From the IMG/VR virus record IMGVR_UViG_2778261088_000001: a stretch of 8,170 bases of DNA. One strand, 5' to 3'. The stretch's first letter is position 1; each line of letters begins with the position of its first letter. The notes below the pieces were generated by a model that was not told where the DNA came from, did not search any database, and saw only the letters and a program-made list of their open reading frames with translations. This document shows, piece by piece, positions 1 to 8,170 of this stretch. Position numbers and translations under genes: made by a program. Source of the stretch: a virus (Duplodnaviria > Heunggongvirae > Uroviricota > Caudoviricetes).

Positions 1-191
1 AATCGGTGGAGCTGCATGACAAAGTCATCGGGCATTATCTGAACATAAAACACTATCAATAAGTTGGAGTCATTACCACCTTCATCTACATAAAAACCTT
101 CGTGATGTCTGCATGGAGACAAGACACCGGATCTGCACAACATTGATAACGCCCAATCTTTTTGCTCAGACTCTAACTCATTGATACGCAT
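1..191 (-). CDS. ea8.5: Ea8.5-like protein, N-terminal 63 codons (gene runs off the left edge of the window)
   Basis: Minus-strand ATG at 191-189 preceded by AGGAG (CAAGGAGTTTATAA-ATG); frame stays open to position 1, reading MRINELESEQKDWALSMLCRSGVLSPCRHHEGFYVDEGGNDSNLLIVFYVQIMPDDFVMQLHR. Position left of ea22 matches lambda gene order. Identification from memory. Confidence 0.6.
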   Translation of the reverse strand, partial: MRINELESEQKDWALSMLCRSGVLSPCRHHEGFYVDEGGNDSNLLIVFYVQIMPDDFVMQLHR

Positions 192-382
192 TTATAAACT
201 CCTTGCAATGTATGTCGTTTCAGCTAAACGGTATCAGCAATGTTTATGTAAAGAAACAGTAAGATAATACTCAACCCGATGTTTGAGTACGGTCATCATC
301 TGACACTACAGACTCTGGCATCGCTGTGAAGACGACGCGAAATTCAGCATTTTCACAAGCGTTATCTTTTACAAAACCGATC

Positions 383-931
383 TCACTCTCCTTTGATGCG
401 AATGCCAGCGTCAGACATCATATGCAGATACTCACCTGCATCCTGAACCCATTGACCTCCAACCCCGTAATAGCGATGCGTAATGATGTCGATAGTTACT
501 AACGGGTCTTGTTCGATTAACTGCCGCAGAAACTCTTCCAGGTCACCAGTGCAGTGCTTGATAACAGGAGTCTTCCCAGGATGGCGAACAACAAGAAACT
601 GGTTTCCGTCTTCACGGACTTCGTTGCTTTCCAGTTTAGCAATACGCTTACTCCCATCCGAGATAACACCTTCGTAATACTCACGCTGCTCGTTGAGTTT
701 TGATTTTGCTGTTTCAAGCTCAACACGCAGCCTCCCTACCGTTAGTGCAATATCCTCGTTCTCATTGTCGCGGCGTTTGACGTATTGCTGGTTTCTTTCC
801 CGTTCATCCAGCAGTGCCAGCACAATCGATGGTGTTACCAGCTCATGGAAAAGGTCAGCGTCAAATCCCCAGTTGTCATGCATTGCCTGCTCTGCCGCTT
901 CACGCAGTGCCTGAGAGTTAATTTCGCTCAC
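383..931 (-). CDS. ea22: Ea22-like protein (182 aa), exo-xis region
   Basis: 182-codon ORF in the track; same length and position as lambda ea22. Start codon is GTG (plus-strand CAC at 929-931) and overlaps the orf73 stop by GTGA, implying translational coupling. Confidence 0.8.
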   Translation of the reverse strand: MSEINSQALREAAEQAMHDNWGFDADLFHELVTPSIVLALLDERERNQQYVKRRDNENEDIALTVGRLRVELETAKSKLNEQREYYEGVISDGSKRIAKLESNEVREDGNQFLVVRHPGKTPVIKHCTGDLEEFLRQLIEQDPLVTIDIITHRYYGVGGQWVQDAGEYLHMMSDAGIRIKGE

Positions 932-1149
932 TTCGAACCTCTCTGTTTACTGATAAGCTCCAGATCTTCCTGGCAACTTGCACAAGTCCGACAACCCTGA
1001 ACGGCCAGGCGTCTTCGCTCATCTATGGGATCGCCACACTCACAACAATGAGTGGCAGATATAGCCTGGTGGTTCAGGCGGCGCATTTTTATTGCTGTGT
1101 TGCGCTGTAATTCTTCAATTTCTGATGCTGAATCAATGATGTCTGCCAT
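928..1149 (-). CDS. orf73: TraR/DksA-family C4 zinc-finger protein (lambda Orf73-like, 73 aa)
   Basis: 73-codon ORF with two Cys pairs (HCCECGDPI and QGCRTCASC) typical of TraR/DksA C4 zinc fingers; sits between ea22 and the orf61 region as in lambda. Confidence 0.8.
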   Translation of the reverse strand: MADIIDSASEIEELQRNTAIKMRRLNHQAISATHCCECGDPIDERRRLAVQGCRTCASCQEDLELISKQRGSK

Positions 1150-1200
1150 CTTTCATTAATCCATGAATTGTTGGTTAATACGCTTGAGGGTGAATGCGAA

Positions 1201-1225
1201 TAATAAAAAAGGAGCCTGTAGCTCC
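1201..1225 (-). terminator. Candidate intrinsic terminator on the minus strand (GC hairpin plus T6)
   Basis: Plus strand 1205-1225 is AAAAAA-GGAGC-CTGTA-GCTCC; on the minus strand that is a 5-bp GC stem with 5-nt loop followed by TTTTTTATTATT, 23 nt downstream of the 1248 stop codon. Confidence 0.45.
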
Positions 1226-1247
1226 ATGATGATTTTGTTTTTCATGC

Positions 1248-1529
1248 TCACCGTTCCTTAAAGACGCCGTTTAACATGCCGATCGCCAGGCTTAAATGAG
1301 TCGGTGTGAATCCCATCAGCGTTACCGTTTCGCGGTGCTTCTTCAGTACGCTACGGCAAATGTCATCGACGTTTTTATCCGGAAACTGCTGTCTGGCTTT
1401 TTTGATTTCAGAATTAGCCTGACGGGCAATACTGCGAAGGGCGTTTTCTTGCTGAGGTGTCATTGAACAAGTCCCATGTCGGCAAGCATAAGCACACAGA
1501 ATATGAAGCCCGCTGCCAGAAAAATGCAT
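1248..1529 (-). CDS. orf61: Hypothetical protein from the orf61 region; frame and length differ from the lambda reference as I recall it
   Basis: 93-codon ORF from ATG 1529, no convincing SD; alternative start at ATG 1463 (MTPQQENALR...). An upstream in-frame ATG at 1559 overlaps orf63 by 20 nt, as lambda orf61 does, but is separated from this ORF by TGA at 1532-1530. See findings. Confidence 0.45.
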   Translation of the reverse strand: MHFSGSGLHILCAYACRHGTCSMTPQQENALRSIARQANSEIKKARQQFPDKNVDDICRSVLKKHRETVTLMGFTPTHLSLAIGMLNGVFKER

Positions 1530-1539
1530 TCAGTGGTTG

Positions 1540-1731
1540 TCATACCTGGTCTCTCTCATCTGCTTCTGCTTTCGCCACCATCATTTCCAGCTTTTGTGAA
1601 AGGGATGCGGCTAACGTATGAAATTCTTCGTCTGTTTCTACTGGTATTGGCACAAACCTGACTCCAATTTGAGCGAGGCTATGTGCCATCTCAATGCTCG
1701 TTCTTAACTCAACAGGAGATGCTTTGTGCAT
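1540..1731 (-). CDS. orf63: Orf63-like protein (63 aa), exo-xis region
   Basis: 63-codon ORF; length and position match lambda orf63; overlaps orf60a by 28 nt. Confidence 0.7.
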   Translation of the reverse strand: MHKASPVELRTSIEMAHSLAQIGVRFVPIPVETDEEFHTLAASLSQKLEMMVAKAEADERDQV

Positions 1732-1886
1732 ACAGCTCCCCGTTTATTATTTATCTCCTCAGCCAGCCGCTGTGCTTTCAGGGGATTTCGGGTAACAGAA
1801 AGGCCGGGAAATACCCAGCCTCGCTTTGTAACGGAGTAGACGAAAGTGATCGCGCCTACCCGGATATTATCGTGAGGATGCTTCAT
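1704..1886 (-). CDS. orf60a: Orf60a-like protein (60 aa)
   Basis: ORF track gives 62 codons from ATG 1892; I place the start at ATG 1886-1884, which overlaps the exo TGA stop (1883-1885) in an ATGA coupling arrangement and gives the 60 codons of lambda orf60a. Confidence 0.65.
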
Positions 1887-2563
1887 CGCCATTGCTCCCC
1901 AAATACAAAACCAATTTCAGCCAGTGCCTCGTCCATTTTTTCGATGAACTCCGGCACCATCTCGTCAAAACTCGCCATGTAATTTTCATCCCGCTCAACC
2001 ACGACATAATGCAGGCCTTCACGCTTCATTCGTGGGTCATAGTTGGCAAAGTACCAGGCATCTTTTCGCGTCACCCACATGCTGTACTGCACCTGGGCCA
2101 TGTAAGCCGATTTTATGGCCTCGAAACCACCGAGCCGGAATTTCATGAAATCCCGGGAGGTAAACGGGCATTTCAGTTCAAGGCCGTTGCCGTCACTGCA
2201 TAAACCATCGGGAGAGCAGGCGGTGCGCATACTTTCGTCGCGATAGATGATCGGGGATTCAGTAACATTCACGCCGGAAGTGAACTCAAACAGGGTTCTG
2301 GCGTCGTTCTCGTACTGTTTTCCCCAGGCCAGTGCTTTAGCGTTAACTTCCGGAGCCACACCGGTGCAAACCTCGGCAAGCAGGGTGTGGAAGTAGGACA
2401 TTTTCATGTCAGGCCACTTCTTTCCGGAGCGGGGTTTTGCTATCACGTTGTGAACTTCTGAAGCGGTGATGACGCCGAGCCGTAATTTGTGCCACGCATC
2501 ATCCCCCTGTTCGACAGCTCTCACATCGATCCCGGTACGCTGCAGGATAATGTCCGGTGTCAT
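1883..2563 (-). CDS. exo: Lambda-type 5'-3' exonuclease Exo (Red alpha), 226 aa
   Basis: 226-codon ORF; sequence ([37 protein letters not shown]...GFVFGEQWR) matches lambda Exo as I remember it; ATG overlaps the bet stop. Confidence 0.95.
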
Positions 2564-3345
2564 GCTGCCACCTTCTGCTCAGTGGCTTTCTGTTTCAGGA
2601 ATCCGAGAGCTTTCACTGCTTCGACCTGTGTCAGTTCTGACGATGCGCGAATGTCGCGGCGAAATATCTGGGAACAGAGCGGCAATAAGTCGTCATCCCA
2701 TGTTTTATCCAGGGCAATCAGCAGAGTGTTAATCTTCTGCATGGTTTCATCGTTAACCGGAGTGATGTCGCGTTCCGGCTGACGTTCTGCAGTGTATGCG
2801 GTATTTTCGACAATGCGCTCGGCTTCATCCTTGTCATAGATACCAGCAAATCCGAAGGCCAGACGGGCACACTGAATCATGGCTTTATGACGTAACATCC
2901 GTTTGGGATGCGACTGCCACGGCCCCGTGATTTCTCTGCCTTCGCGGGTTTTGAATGGTTCGCGGCGGCATTCATCCATCCACTCGGTAACGCAGATCGG
3001 ATGATTACGGTCCTTGCGGTAAATCCGGCATGTGCAGGATTCATTGTCCTGCTCAAAGTCCATGCCATCAAACTGCTGGTTTTCATTGATGATACGGGAC
3101 CAGCCATCAACGCCCACCACCGGAACGATGCCGTTCTGCTTGTCAGGGAAGGCGTAAATTTCTTTCGTCCACGGATTAAGGCCGTACTGGTTGGCGACGA
3201 TCAACAATGCGATGAACTGCGCATCGCTGGCATCGCCTTTAAATGCCGTCTGGCGAAGAGTGGTGATCAGTTCCTGTGGGTCGACAGAATCCATGCCGAC
3301 ACGTTCAGCCAGCTTCCCAGCCAGCGTTGCGAGTGCTGTACTCAT
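2560..3345 (-). CDS. bet: Lambda-type single-strand annealing protein Bet (Red beta), 261 aa
   Basis: 261-codon ORF; matches lambda Bet in length and recalled sequence; sits between gam and exo. Confidence 0.95.
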
Positions 3346-3350
3346 CCGTT

Positions 3351-3767
3351 TTATACCTCTGAATCAATATCAACCTGATGGTGAGCAATGGTTTCAACCA
3401 TGTACCGGATGTGTTCTGCCATGCGCTCCTGAAACTCAACATCGTCATCAAACGCACGGGTAATGGCTTTTTTGCTGGCCCCGTGGCGTTGCAAATGATC
3501 GATGCATAGCGATTCAAACAGGTGCTGGGGCAGGCCTTTTTCCATGTCGTCTGCCAGTTCTGCCTCTTTCTCTTCACGGGCGATCTGCTGGTAGTGACGC
3601 GCCCAGCTCTGAGCCTCAAGACGATCCTGAATGTAATAAGCGTTCATGGCTGAACTCCTGAAATAGCTGTGAAAATATCGCCCGCGAAATGCCAGGCTGA
3701 TTAGGAAAACAGGAAAGGGGGTTAGTGAATGCTTTTGCTTGATCTCAGTTTCAGCATTAATATCCAT
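3351..3767 (-). CDS. gam: Gam (RecBCD inhibitor), 138-codon long form with an internal start for the 98-aa short form
   Basis: 138-codon ORF matching lambda Gam. Internal ATG at 3647-3645 ([12 protein letters not shown]...) is preceded by AGGAG (plus-strand CTCCT at 3655-3659), the classic short-form start. Confidence 0.93.
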
Positions 3768-3865
3768 TTTTTATAAGCGTCGACGGCTTCACGAAACATC
3801 TTTTCATCGCCAATAAAAGTGGCGATAGTGAATTTAGTCTGGATAGCCATAAGTGTTTGATCCAT
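3722..3865 (-). CDS. kil: Kil (host cell-division inhibitor), 47 aa
   Basis: Within the 89-codon ORF 3722..3991, ATG at 3865-3863 preceded by AGGAG gives 47 aa ([47 protein letters not shown]), matching lambda Kil; overlaps the 3' end of cIII. Confidence 0.85.
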
Positions 3866-3998
3866 TCTTTGGGACTCCTGGCTGATTAAGTATGTCGATA
3901 AGGCGTTTCCATCCGTCACGTAATTTACGGGTGATTCGTTCAAGTAAAGATTCGGAAGGGCAGCCAGCAACAGGCCACCCTGCAATGGCATATTGCAT
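3834..3998 (-). CDS. cIII: CIII (FtsH inhibitor that stabilises CII), 54 aa
   Basis: Within the 78-codon ORF 3834..4070, ATG at 3998-3996 preceded by AAGGAG gives 54 aa ([54 protein letters not shown]), matching lambda CIII. Confidence 0.88.
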   Translation of the reverse strand: MQYAIAGWPVAGCPSESLLERITRKLRDGWKRLIDILNQPGVPKNGSNTYGYPD

Positions 3999-4070
3999 GG
4001 TGTGCTCCTTATTTATACATAACGAAAAACGCCTCGAGTGAAGCGTTATTGGTATGCGGTAAAACCGCAC

Positions 4071-4439
4071 TCAGGCGGCCTTGATAGTCATATCATCTGA
4101 ATCAAATATTCCTGATGTATCGATATCGGTAATTCTTATTCCTTCACTACCATCCATTGGAGGCCATCCTTCCTGACCATTTCCATCATCCCAGTCGAAC
4201 TCACAAACAACACCATATGCATTTAAGTCTTTCGAAATTGCTATAAGCAGAGCATGTTGCGCCAGCATGATTAATACAGCATTTAATAAAGAGCCGTGTT
4301 TATTTAGTCGGTATTCAGAGTCTGACCAGAAATTATTAATCTGGTGAAGTTTTTCCTCTGTCATTACGTCATGGTCGATTTCAATTTCTATTGATGCTTT
4401 CCAGTCGTAATCAATGATGTATTTTCTGATGTTTGACAT
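4071..4439 (-). CDS. ea10: Ea10-like protein, 122 aa
   Basis: 122-codon ORF at the lambda ea10 position; ATG 4439 preceded by GAGGA. Confidence 0.8.
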   Translation of the reverse strand: MSNIRKYIIDYDWKASIEIEIDHDVMTEEKLHQINNFWSDSEYRLNKHGSLLNAVLIMLAQHALLIAISKDLNAYGVVCEFDWDDGNGQEGWPPMDGSEGIRITDIDTSGIFDSDDMTIKAA

Positions 4440-4455
4440 CTGTTCATATCCTCAC

Positions 4456-4485
4456 AGATAAAAAATCGCCCTCACATTAGAGGGC
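4456..4485 (-). terminator. Candidate intrinsic terminator on the minus strand between ral and ea10 (tL2-like position)
   Basis: Stem GCCCTC (4468-4473) / GAGGGC (4480-4485) with 6-nt loop; on the minus strand it is followed by GATTTTTTATCTG, immediately upstream of the ea10 RBS. Confidence 0.45.
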
Positions 4486-4621
4486 AAAGAAGATTTCCAA
4501 TAATCAGAACAAGTCGGCTCCTGTTTAGTTACGAGCGACATTGCTCCGTGTATTCACTCGTTGGAATGAATACACAGTGCAGTGTTTATTCTGTTGTTTA
4601 TGCCAAAGATAAAGGCTACCA

Positions 4622-4823
4622 TCAGGCAGCCTTGTTGTTCTGTTTGTCAAGTTCTCTGGCAATCATTGCCGTCGTTCGTATTGCCCATTTATCGACATAT
4701 TTCCCATCTTCCATTACAGGAAACATTTCTTCCAGGCTTAACCATGCATTCCGATTGCAGCTTGCATCCATTGCATCGTTTGAATTGTCCACACCATTGA
4801 TTTGTATCAATAGTCGTAGTCAT
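4622..4823 (-). pseudogene. ral: ral (restriction alleviation) disrupted by a +1 frameshift
   Basis: ATG at 4823-4821 opens a frame reading MTTTIDTNQWCGQFKRCNGCKLQSECMVKPG... that stops after 44 codons; the -1 frame (track ORF 4622..4810) carries the Ral C-terminus EEMFPVMEDGKYVDKWAIRTTAMIARELDKQNNKAA. The two join into a 66-aa Ral if one C is removed from TTCTTCCAGG near 4730-4734. Confidence 0.6.
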
Positions 4824-4893
4824 ACGGATAGTCCAGGTATTGTTCCATCACATCCTGAGGATGCTCTTCGAACTCTTCAAATTCTTCTTCCAT
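4807..4893 (-). CDS. Small acidic ORF (28 aa), lambda orf28-like
   Basis: ATG at 4893-4891 preceded by TAAGGTGATAT; translates MEEEFEEFEEHPQDVMEQYLDYPYDYDY, stop at 4809-4807; overlaps the ral start. Very short, so the call is tentative. Confidence 0.35.
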   Translation of the reverse strand: MEEEFEEFEEHPQDVMEQYLDYPYDYDY

Positions 4894-4945
4894 ATATCAC
4901 CTTAAATAGTGGATTGCGGTAGTAAAGATTGTGCCTGTCTTTTAA

Positions 4946-5080
4946 CCACATCAGGCTCGGTGGTTCTCGTGTAAAGGGCATGCCAAGCAAGTCGATGCTG
5001 CATATGCAAAAGAATGCGCGCTGGAAGGTATGGCGAGAACACAGGTTATCTGGCTGAAAGAGGGGGTTATTAAGGCGTGA
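4946..5080 (+). pseudogene. 3' fragment of a ybcO-like (DLP12 nin-region) gene, lacking its start
   Basis: Frame opens after TAA at 4943-4945 with no start codon and reads [44 protein letters not shown]; the last ~30 residues match my recollection of the YbcO C-terminus. Stop at 5078-5080 overlaps the rusA GTG (GTGA). Confidence 0.45.
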
Positions 5081-5439
5081 ATACCTACAGCATCACATTA
5101 CCCTGGCCTCCGAGCAATAACCGCTACTACCGGCATAATCGCGGGCGCACGCACATCAGCGCAGAAGGGCAGGCATACCGTGATAACGTCGCCCGAATCA
5201 TTAAAAACGCAATGCTGGATATCGGCCTGGCTATGCCTGTGAAAATCCGCATTGAGTGCCACATGCCGGATCGCCGTCGCCGTGACCTGGATAATCTGCA
5301 AAAAGCCGCTTTTGACGCACTCACTAAAGCAGGTTTCTGGCTGGATGATGCTCAGGTCGTTGATTACCGCGTTGTGAAGATGCCTGTTACCAAAGGTGGG
5401 AGGCTGGAACTGACCATCACCGAAATGGGGAATGAATGA
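5077..5439 (+). CDS. rusA: RusA Holliday-junction resolvase, 120 aa
   Basis: 120-codon ORF with GTG start; [26 protein letters not shown]...[12 protein letters not shown] matches DLP12 RusA as I recall it. Confidence 0.92.
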
Positions 5440-5576
5440 TGTTTGAGTTTAATATGGCAGAACTTCTTCGCCACCGCTGGGGGCGTCTGCGCTTATATCG
5501 TTTCCCCGGTTCTGTTTTGACCGATTACCGAATACTGAAGAATTACGCCAAAACCCTGACAGGAACAGGAGTATGA
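5436..5576 (+). CDS. ylcG: YlcG-like small protein, 46 aa
   Basis: Not in the ORF track (too short). ATGATG at 5436 overlaps the rusA stop; translates [46 protein letters not shown], stop at 5574-5576; sits between rusA and the Q gene as in DLP12. Confidence 0.6.
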
Positions 5577-5661
5577 AGTCAGAGATAACAATCAACTAAT
5601 ACTGTTTTGTTGATTTTTGCTTGTAATTGGCGTTCTGGTCTGATTTTTGTGGAGTAAGTTG

Positions 5662-6045
5662 ATGCGTGATATTCAGATGGTTCTTGAGCGTTGGGGTGCG
5701 TGGGCGGCTAATAATCATGAAGATGTGACCTGGTCGTCCATTGCCGCCGGTTTTAAGGGATTAATTCCTTCAAAAGTAAAATCTCGCCCGCAATGTTGTG
5801 ACGATGACGCGATGATCATTTGCGGGTGCATGGCCCGTCTGAAAAAGAACAACAGCGATTTACACGATTTATTAGTAGATTATTATGTATGTGGTATGAC
5901 ATTCATGTCACTGGCAAGTAAGCATTGCTGCTCGGATGGTTATATCGGGAAAAGGTTACAGAAGGCTGAGGGCATAATTGAAGGGATGTTAATGGCATTA
6001 GATATCCGGTTAGATATGGATATCGTTGCTAATAATTCTAATTGA
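5662..6045 (+). CDS. quuD: Q-family late-gene antiterminator (QuuD-like), 127 aa
   Basis: Track ORF begins at TTG 5647; I place the start at ATG 5662, preceded by GGAG with 7-nt spacing ([24 protein letters not shown]...). Contains a Cys cluster ([12 protein letters not shown]). Matches DLP12 QuuD from memory. Confidence 0.88.
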
Positions 6046-6182
6046 TATGCAATTGTTTACTAAAAGTTATTAAAAATGGGGCGTGGAAACGCCCCCAAAA
6101 TAAAGGGTAATATATAACAGAAGGTTTATATAGTAAGAAGCAAGGTAGTGCTTCTAAAGGAAGTGGCTTGAGGGCTCCACTT

Positions 6183-6222
6183 ATATGTTGCGGAGGCAAA
6201 GCCTCCCGCAACATATCTTTTT
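6183..6222 (+). terminator. Strong intrinsic terminator on the plus strand downstream of the Q gene (candidate tR'-like element)
   Basis: 15-bp stem ATATGTTGCGGAGGC (6183-6197) / GCCTCCCGCAACATAT (6201-6216, one bulged C) with AAA loop, followed by CTTTTT (6217-6222); ends 11 nt before the porin stop codon on the other strand. Confidence 0.55.
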
Positions 6223-6233
6223 CGTAAGTCAGA

Positions 6234-7316
6234 TTAGAACTGATAAACCAGACCTACAGCGACGATGTCGTCGGTATCAATACCAGCTGTTTTGGTAAAC
6301 TTACTATCGTCAATTAAGTTGATTTTGTAATCAACAAAAGTGGACATGTTTTTATTAAAGTAGTAAGTAGCACCGACATCGACATACTTGACTAAGTCTC
6401 GGTCACCATGAACACCAAGGTCTTTACCTTTTGACTGAAGGTAAGCAACAGATGGGCGCAGACCGAAGTCAAACTGATATTGTGCTACTGCTTCAAAGTT
6501 TTGTGCTTTGTTTGCAATATGGTTATTACCAAAAACGGTCATATTCTGAGTTTCAGAATATGTGGTAGCCAGATAGATATTGTTCGCATCATATTTCAGG
6601 CCTGCAGCCCATACTTCCGCATTTTTGCCGGAGGCATTGAATTTGCTCTTACCATAGGCGACCTGACCGTCAGTGCGATCTGATTTAGCATAGGTTGCAC
6701 CCACGCCGAATCCTTCATACTCATAAGTAGTGGAGAAACCGAAACCATCACCATTGGCTTCAGTTACGTCAGTGCGGTCATTTTTACCCTGATACTGAGC
6801 AGCAAAGTTCAGGCCATCGACCAGACCAAAGAAGTCGTTGTTACGATAAGTTGCAACACCAGTAGTGCGACCAGTCATGAACACATCTGTTTGGGTCCAG
6901 GTATCACCACCGAATTCTGGCAGAACGTCAGTCCACGCACCGATGTCGTATGCTACACCGTAGTTACGGCCGTAATCGATTGAGCCGTAATCACCAAATT
7001 TCAGGCCTGCAAATGCAAGACGGGTTTTGTCTTTGGAAGAACCTTGAGATTCAGCACGGTTGCCTTTGAATTCATATTCCCACTGACCGAAACCAGTCAG
7101 TTGATCGTTGATTTGGGTTTCACCTTTGAAGCCAAGACGGGCATAAGTAGTATCACCATCATCTGCATCATTAGAGGAGAAGTAGTGCTTGGCATTAACT
7201 TTCCCGTATAGATCCAGCTTGTTACTGTCTTTATTATAAATTTCAGCTGCCTGAGCAGACATCGCCATCAGTACTGATGCAGCTACAGCAGAAATTGCCA
7301 CTGTTAATTTTTTCAT
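6234..7316 (-). CDS. nmpC: Outer-membrane general porin precursor (NmpC/Lc/OmpC family), 360 aa, apparently intact
   Basis: Track ORF is 380 codons from ATG 7376; I call ATG 7316, which gives a classic signal peptide ([23 protein letters not shown] / AEIYNKD). The protein ends in the porin C-terminal Phe (...VGLVYQF). No insertion element interrupts it. Confidence 0.92.
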
Positions 7317-7390
7317 TGTACGCCCTTTTTTTGAACTATTATTAAAAAATGATGTCACTGCGCGATAAATATTCATCTAATCAATGTGAT

Positions 7391-7410
7391 TATTTCAAGA
7401 TGTAAGTTTT
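7391..7410 (-). promoter_or_regulatory. OmpR-box-like motif upstream of the porin gene (tentative)
   Basis: Minus strand reads AAAACTTACATCTTGAAATA, resembling the ompC C1-type OmpR site TTTACATTTTGAAACATCTA as I recall it (TTACAT..TTGAAA core), about 75-95 bp upstream of the porin ATG. No -10/-35 pair defined. Confidence 0.25.
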
Positions 7411-7742
7411 AGTTTCTCATTTAATTTGTGAAGTAGATCTCTATTTTTATCTGAACCTTTTCTATCTAATCCTATTCATGGCTCTTGTCTGAACAAAAAT
7501 AAATCTATTAGCTAATTTATATTAATGGCACTTATTTATAAGTGCTCTATAATTCTTTAGCTTAATTTAAACAAACTAAAAATAACATCGGAAATTATTG
7601 GCTGGTTATTTGTTGAAGTTTTCTTATGTATTTGTGGTGGTATTTTGAACACTCGGTGGCATTCTCACAAATATCATTTAGTAGTTTACGTACGTAAAAA
7701 ATTGGTTATGCTGTTAAGAGTGGTTACTTCGTCACACAGCTT

Positions 7743-7777
7743 AAACCCGCCGTCGAGCGGGTTTTTCCATTTTTTGA
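7743..7777 (+). terminator. Intrinsic terminator on the plus strand, 130 bp upstream of the holin gene
   Basis: Stem AAACCCGC (7743-7750) / GCGGGTTT (7757-7764) with loop CGTCGA, followed by TTCCATTTTTTG. Confidence 0.55.
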
Positions 7778-7904
7778 GTCTCGATATTAGCTGATAACCC
7801 AATACCTGAGTTATTCACTGACTCCGAATCTGTTACGTTTCTGCCTTTATTGCGATACGTAGTATCCCCTTAATTTACACCCGCTTTGTCTGCGAGGTGG
7901 GGTT

Positions 7905-8120
7905 ATGAAATCCATGGATAAGTTAACAACGGGTGTCGCCTATGGTACCTCAGCAGGTAGTGCCGGGTACTGGTTTTTACAGTTGCTCGATAAAGTCACG
8001 CCCTCACAGTGGGCGGCAATAGGTGTGCTGGGAAGTCTAGTTCTGGGCTTTTTGACTTATCTGACAAATCTTTATTTCAAGATTAAAGAAGATAAGCGTA
8101 AGGCTGCACGGGGAGAGTAA
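7905..8120 (+). CDS. essD: Class II holin/pinholin, phage-21 S21-like (EssD-like), 71 aa with a dual-start motif
   Basis: 71-codon ORF; [31 protein letters not shown]... matches S21/EssD from memory; Met1-Lys2-Ser-Met4 dual start; RBS GAGGTGG upstream; charged C-terminal tail. Confidence 0.9.
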
Positions 8121-8124
8121 TTCA

Positions 8125-8170
8125 ATGACTCAAAACTATGAACTGATTGTGAAAGGGATCCGCAATTTTG
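8125..8170 (+). CDS. 5' end of the gene following the holin (presumed lysis gene; identity not determinable)
   Basis: ATG at 8125 preceded by GGGAGAG with 7-nt spacing; frame open to the window end (MTQNYELIVKGIRNF...). Only 15 codons are present; they do not resemble the R21 or RrrD N-termini I remember. Confidence 0.3.
   Translation, partial: MTQNYELIVKGIRNF

Follow-up and report, generated by a model that had tools for sequence, protein, structure and literature searches.

Genes and open reading frames at the orf61 locus

The window (the whole 8,170-nt stretch of viral DNA analyzed here) derives, judging from its sequence, from a lambdoid prophage or phage, of which it represents the early leftward region. 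Its positions 78-4973 align with positions 29542-34437 of lambda at 97.9% identity and in one single piece, with only two indels, one in the A-run of the orf61 locus and the other in ral, at 4732. Similarity to lambda stops at 4973, and the best phage record covers about 61% of the window at most, which indicates that the immunity-side part (4974-8170) is of a different lambdoid type. The only Rfam match in the window is the cIII thermoregulator, expected for such a region, and the orf61 region shows no Rfam match. As for the second indel, ral is frameshifted in the window by an extra G (GG, compared to G at lambda 34197), and its product, MTTTIDTNQWCGQFKRCNGCKLQSECMVKPGRNVSCNGRWEICR followed by a stop, has 44 aa, compared to the 66-aa Ral. 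The corresponding segment falls at 95-99% identity in 778 of 786 complete E. coli genome records, and in the records shown 75 of 76 bases match, i.e. they are devoid of the extra base, which for this reason appears to be a private mutation or a sequencing error.

Table 1. Features of the window discussed in the text (coordinates of the window; all on the minus strand).
Feature	Position	Strand	Remarks
ea22	383-931	-	
orf73, TraR/DksA-type zinc-finger protein	928-1149	-	Pfam PF01258, E=7.7e-9; next gene of the operon
Short ORF, 31 codons from GTG 1251 or 29 from ATG 1245	1156-1251	-	between the 71-codon gene and orf73
Terminator-like hairpin	1211-1225		within the short ORF; GGAGCTACAGGCTCC, then T6
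71-codon gene, product MTPQQENALRSIARQANSEIKKARQQFPDKNVDDICRSVLKKHRETVTLMGFTPTHLSLAIGMLNGVFKER	1248-1463	-	apparently intact in the window
93-codon longest ORF	1248-1529	-	gene model of 933W ST933Wp10 and Phi24B vb_24B_7c
TAA that ends the lambda A7 allele (orf61)	1375-1377	-	out of frame in the window
A6 homopolymer	1398-1403	-	codons K21-K22 of the 71-aa gene
27-codon ORF, putative product MTTTECIFLAAGFIFCVLMLADMGLVQ	1460-1543	-	uncharged hydrophobic core C6-A21
Lambda orf61 start position: ATG and 9 codons, then TGA	1530-1559	-	frame without a coding signature
Polymorphic site	1532	-	T 68, G 39, A 10 (117 loci)
orf63 (DUF1382), 63 aa	1540-1731	-	Pfam PF07131, E=3e-31; annotated as orf63 in lambda
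orf60a (DUF1317)	1704-1892	-	
exo	1883-2563	-	
bet	2560-3345	-	
cIII thermoregulator	3953-4011	-	Rfam RF01804, 88.5 bits
ral, frameshifted	4689-4823	-	extra G at 4732
380-codon ORF	6234-7376	-	inside 4974-8170

A preliminary description of the locus had compared it with lambda, and its reading of the letters is correct. The ATG at 1559-1557 on the minus strand overlaps the 3' end of orf63 (which ends at 1540) by 20 nt and opens a frame that reads MRETRYDNH and stops at TGA 1532-1530; the ATG at 1529 comes immediately afterwards and opens a 93-codon ORF that runs down to 1248; the A6 run and the TAA are found at 1403-1398 and 1377-1375, respectively. The frame rebuilt in that description by restoring codon 10 and one A is exactly the annotated orf61 of lambda (NC_001416, 30839-31024, 61 aa), and our alignment with NC_001416 bears out that the two sequences are not identical here: the TGA of the window corresponds to GGA in lambda, and its A6 run to A7. 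Hence the window possesses the ATG overlap of the lambda-type allele, but neither its open codon 10 (GGA) nor its A7 run. The G to T change at 1532 and the A7 to A6 change are the only ones that touch lambda's orf61 frame, and since they are a direct difference between two sequences, chance plays no part in the contrast. On the other hand, to call the region "rearranged" was an overstatement for two point differences, one of which is silent in the frame that appears to be truly coding.

Substitution patterns and gene starts

Between orf63 and the 71-codon gene lies a 27-codon ORF, whose ATG overlaps the TGA stop of orf63 (1542-1540) as ATGA and whose own stop overlaps the ATG of the 71-codon gene, again as ATGA. 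Overlaps of stop and start codons of this kind are the usual arrangement for translational coupling. In 118 close relatives, 12 of the 20 changes in the 27-codon frame are silent compared to 27% expected (P=0.002), as are 9 of the 11 non-singleton changes (P=0.0002); the E. coli family is about 97-99% identical, so that this test and the other substitution tests reported here draw on no more than 20-33 changes, and these do not have independent histories. The 27-aa peptide is identical in 176 of 199 loci, which comprise 28 nucleotide versions, and the ORF was found in 175 phage records, lambda included. The ATG at 1543 has a Shine-Dalgarno-like GAGAGAG, with an anti-SD duplex of -5.6 kcal/mol. 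In a mosaic type (L030), another gene stands in the place of orf63; the junction lies precisely at the start codon of the 27-codon ORF, where the ATGA overlap is kept. The ATG equivalent to 1559, i.e. the start of lambda's orf61, is missing from this mosaic.

The three alleles of the polymorphic site 1532 yield TGA, GGA or AGA in the orf61 frame, and ACT, ACG or ACA, all of them encoding Thr4, in the 27-codon ORF. The TGA of the window is thus best read as a silent third position of Thr4 rather than as a nonsense mutation. It must be noted that the 27-codon ORF is not annotated as a separate CDS in any of the annotated records we examined, including those of lambda, phage 434, 933W and Phi24B; with 84 nt it is shorter than the minimum that automated gene callers usually require. 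Searches with its product found nothing in Pfam, phrog_21538 only at E=0.68 in PHROGs, and one match in NCBIfam (TIGR02507, MtrF, 13.8 bits) below the cut-off of 25. We infer from the substitution pattern and the gene overlaps that the ORF is translated and coupled to its neighbors, and it may have a function; we consider the chances about even that its product is a genuine small membrane protein, conserved in lambda and in more than 170 other lambdoid and Stx phages.

The same stretch of DNA looks very different when read in the orf61 frame, which is also the frame of the N-terminal part of the 93-codon ORF. Here, between 1540 and 1464, 4 of 20 changes are silent, as expected at random, and 16 of 20 alter the amino acid; moreover, the frame can carry a stop, because the alleles at 1532 specify a stop, Gly or Arg. 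It could be argued that the full 93-residue protein from ATG 1529 is nonetheless the real product, in which case the 27-codon ORF would be no more than a fortuitous ORF in a different frame. The 93-codon ORF is indeed the longest one, its product matches phrog_303 over its full length (E=2.5e-43, residues 1-93), the corresponding gene model is the one deposited for 933W and Phi24B, and 1695 sequences belong to the 93-aa cluster. We find this improbable. Such large member counts reflect the choice of the longest ORF by gene callers, and the RefSeq gene model has 71 aa. Of the 20 changes in codons 1-22 of the 93-codon ORF, 16 are replacements in its frame, yet the same changes are mostly silent in the 27-codon frame; one of the alleles at 1532 places a stop just upstream of ATG 1529, and this ATG has no usable Shine-Dalgarno sequence (anti-SD duplex of -3.3 kcal/mol). 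Furthermore, in an E. coli mosaic type (L007) all sequence upstream of the ATG equivalent to 1463 is replaced by an unrelated 115-codon gene, so that the N-terminal extension is absent. Residues 1-23 of the Phi24B protein could not be modeled consistently in a previous study, whereas residues 24-93 formed a three-helix fold (PMC8614690).

Accordingly with the above observations, the first 22 codons of the 93-codon ORF (1529-1464), which bear no coding signature, are probably untranslated, and the product of the locus probably consists of 71 aa from ATG 1463 rather than 93 aa from ATG 1529. The preliminary description, which offered a longer, C-terminally distinct protein as one possibility, was right about the frame and about the C-terminus (...GMLNGVFKER) and probably wrong about the start. 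Downstream of the A-run, the 71-aa frame shows 22 silent changes out of 33, compared to 32% expected (P=4e-5), and all 12 of the non-singleton changes are among the silent ones; in the tail frame of lambda only 3 of 33 are silent. Before the A-run, where there are very few changes, 3 of 8 are silent in the 71-aa frame. The ATG at 1463 is characterized by a weak anti-SD duplex (-3.9 kcal/mol) and by the stop/start overlap.

The lengths of homologous proteins point in the same direction. When the 71-aa sequence was searched with HMMER against 1.84 billion representative proteins, 60 relatives were retrieved, from which we set aside fragments and fusions of the E. coli protein, as well as a handful of long proteins with several domains that matched weakly, in part and repeatedly. 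The remaining relatives with 32-65% identity mostly have 68-78 aa; twenty homologues in this range of identity align with residues 1-71 and are 68-89 aa long (17 of the 20 at 69-75 aa). The distant homologues (P0078-P0111) lack the N-terminal extension, except for one with about 10 extra residues. The alignment reveals conserved N7, A13, G62, N65 and G66, and the protein of the window fits this pattern.

Two distant loci, L128 (1501-2071) and L129 (846-1719), were found by two single-protein scans; one further scan of this kind recovered only the E. coli family. Both encode 72-aa homologues with about 45% identity directly after an ORF with a DPPW motif, which we read as a MT-A70-type DNA methyltransferase. 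In both cases the homologue begins within the last bases of this methyltransferase-like ORF, and therefore there is no room for an N-terminal extension. In L128 the homologue precedes an ORF for a TraR/DksA-like zinc finger, which makes it seem that the pairing of the small protein with a TraR-like gene is older than the lambda module.

The AlphaFold2 model of the 71 aa (mean pLDDT 89.7) comprises helices at residues 3-26, 32-49 and 54-64. The product is thus predicted to be a small three-helix protein, in agreement with the fold reported for the Phi24B protein, for which a homeodomain-like (helix-turn-helix) DNA-binding fold has been proposed (PMC8614690). Searches of Pfam, NCBIfam and PHROGs with the 71-aa product revealed no informative family. 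The name "cell division protein ZapA", which PGAP has given to some of the relatives, was rejected: the product scores 16.1 bits against Pfam PF05164, which is below the cut-off of 23.8, and no more than 2 of the 22 members of the family match Pfam ZapA.

Downstream of the 71-codon gene there is another short ORF (Table 1). It was considered as a coding gene and dropped, since the substitution test found no frame in it with an excess of silent changes (5 of 18) and hence no coding signature. The terminator-like hairpin that it contains was considered as the lambda tL3 terminator; this identification was also dropped, as tL3 is located directly after exo (as in the pKD46 construct). The ORF, which has 31 codons in lambda, probably corresponds to "orf2313", a 31-aa peptide from ribosome profiling of lambda (PMC8614690).

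The A6 and A7 alleles

The A7 allele, which is found in lambda and in a second haplotype, truncates the 71-aa protein after 22 residues. In order to estimate its frequency we used a pattern scan of IMG/VR centered on the run (120 loci) together with loci fetched later, 197 in all. The run is A6 in 188 of the 197, A7 in 8 (two of which are copies of lambda itself) and AAAAAT in 1. Of the records of 5,426 complete E. coli genomes, 1930 have the A6 61-mer of the window as their exact best match and 124 have the A7 62-mer of lambda; among the records listed, many carriers of the latter are DE3 or K-12 laboratory strains. RefSeq/PGAP marks the A7 copies of BLR(DE3), MS6198 and ST648 as pseudogenes with the label "frameshifted", and an intact 216-nt CDS for the 71-aa protein is annotated in a RefSeq O157:H7 genome that bears the exact A6 61-mer of the window. 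The majority of A6 and the RefSeq labels on A7 lead us to regard the lambda allele as derived and that of the window as the standard one. Thus, the two differences postulated in the preliminary description (a nonsense change and a 1-bp deletion) are real, but their direction has to be reversed, as it is lambda that appears to carry a derived additional A. Its proposal that orf61 is inactivated in the window is opposed by the allele counts, by the "frameshifted" label on the lambda-type copies, and by the lack of purifying selection on the orf61 frame of lambda; the window displays the common, intact state.

At least two haplotypes carry the A7 run. The second is unrelated to the lambda-type one, from which it differs at 8 of the 330 sites that flank the run, which implies that the frameshift either arose more than once or was moved by recombination. 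The second haplotype was found in an IMG/VR contig (L014), in E. coli MS6198 (L125) and in E. coli ST648 (L126). Within the segment equivalent to 1240-1560 its base at 1532 is T, and a C to T change has replaced codon Gln27 of the 27-codon ORF by a stop. Its presence in non-lambda prophages of two clinical isolates suggests that A7 is not purely a laboratory event. We also considered A7 as an error in the 1982 sequence of lambda and rejected this, because several complete DE3 and K-12 genomes contain the exact A7 62-mer; in addition, independent re-sequencings of lambda align at the reference length.

The recurrence of A7 raises the question of whether the A-run acts as a switch, in which slippage between A6 and A7 in the genome, in transcription or in translation toggles the 71-residue protein and both states are used. 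The two haplotypes would be compatible with it, and several database proteins change frame around the A-run. Still, with 6-7 A the run is short for slippage to be efficient, no more than about 4-6% of the copies have A7, the second haplotype could represent one inherited mutation, and many of the odd protein variants, known from one sequence each, may be assembly errors. We therefore assign to a switch only a slight probability.

Even less credit can be given to the possibility that the 61-residue Orf61 of lambda is functional and was lost in the window by a nonsense mutation and a 1-bp deletion, which we regard as extremely improbable and as already contradicted by the population data. To be sure, orf61 is annotated in lambda with 61 aa and has its own PHROG. 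The ribosome profiling study of lambda is reportedly that of Liu et al. from 2013. Ribosome profiling is stated to have "confirmed" orf61 as expressed in lambda (PMC8614690), and deletion of orf61 alters the lysis-lysogeny decision and induction, with mild phenotypes in lambda, weaker than in Phi24B (PMC6213356). However, with such a deletion the 27-codon ORF and the beginning of the 71-codon gene are lost as well, and hence the phenotypes cannot discriminate between the models, and the weaker effects in lambda fit a broken lambda copy. The A7 allele is rare and flagged as frameshifted, the orf61 frame bears no signal of selection, in 68 of 117 loci it is interrupted by TGA at codon 10, and its start at ATG 1559 has essentially no Shine-Dalgarno sequence (anti-SD duplex of -1.9 kcal/mol). 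Besides, lambda Orf61 "appears to be truncated" in comparison with the proteins of Stx phages and models as unstructured (PMC8614690).

Taking together the observed differences in sequence, the frequencies of the alleles, the patterns of substitution, the lengths of the homologues and the annotations already deposited, we propose that the window very probably contains the standard, intact orf63-orf73 segment, with the 27-codon ORF and the 71-codon gene, and that it is the copy of lambda that is frameshifted. In this scenario orf63, the 27-codon ORF and the 71-codon gene would be packed head to tail on the minus strand of the pL operon, with an ATGA overlap at each boundary and presumably with translational coupling. 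The orf61 locus has been described genetically as pro-lytic. The "orf61" of lambda would then not be a distinct gene: the extra A would cut the 71-codon gene after 22 residues, and the longest ORF left, with 61 codons, would have been annotated in its place. It would consist of 32 codons in a non-coding frame across the 27-codon ORF, the first 22 real codons of the 71-codon gene and an out-of-frame tail of 7 codons. The TGA of the window would sit in that non-coding frame, where the T/G/A variation is silent with respect to the 27-codon ORF.

Comparison with known phages

It must be emphasized that the difference between the alleles has already been recognized, as evidenced by the 71-codon model of RefSeq, by the "frameshifted" flags, and by the statement on truncation published in 2021 (PMC8614690), and that annotations of the 93-codon form in Stx phages go back to the genome of 933W. 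What our analysis adds is the evidence for the 27-codon ORF, which we regard as a modest lead, and the evidence against the 22-codon N-terminal extension. If our interpretation is correct, the lambda annotation "orf61" (lambdap37) describes a frameshifted pseudogene rather than a gene, and consequently both the genetics of orf61 deletions in lambda and the statement that profiling confirmed this gene need to be read again. Deletions of "orf61" in lambda or in Phi24B also remove all or part of the 27-codon ORF, which may add to their phenotypes. Were the 27-codon ORF indeed a gene, the ribosome footprints over lambda "orf61" would partly belong to it, and the phenotypes of orf61 deletion in lambda would partly be its doing, even though the 71-codon gene of lambda is a pseudogene. 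The product of the next gene of the operon, Orf73, has already been characterized in lambda (PMC9239242).

The closest counterparts of the locus are found in the Stx phages 933W (ST933Wp10, NP_049470) and Phi24B (vb_24B_7c, ADN68397), which possess the same 282-nt ORF, 10 nt after the stop of orf63, with the A6 run and the C-terminus as in the window, and whose organization shows no material difference. Their gene was deposited as "similar to ninL ORF61 of lambda", with a start that, as argued above, would lie 22 codons too far upstream. The RefSeq protein WP_000188870.1 (71 aa) starts at the equivalent of ATG 1463, has the same length as the product proposed here, and is encoded between the DUF1382 and TraR/DksA genes; PGAP names it and its relatives either "hypothetical protein" or "cell division protein ZapA". 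The annotation of phage 434 also contains a 216-nt CDS at the equivalent place, and two clusters of 71-aa proteins (P0019 and P0024) are 92-94% identical to the 71-aa protein of the window.

The orf61 of lambda (NP_040613, phrog_26061) occupies the same locus with 98% nucleotide identity and shares the ATG overlap, but it has a 61-codon frame that is absent from the window owing to the TGA at codon 10 and the A6 run. A frameshift in a reference genome would not be without precedent in this phage: laboratory lambda PaPa reportedly carries, according to Hendrix and Duda (cited in PMC6213356), a 1-bp frameshift that splits or truncates stf, a gene that is intact in its relatives. The stf case concerns a different gene, and, unlike it, the A7 run of the orf61 locus is also found in non-lambda prophages of clinical isolates, which argues against a simple laboratory artifact.
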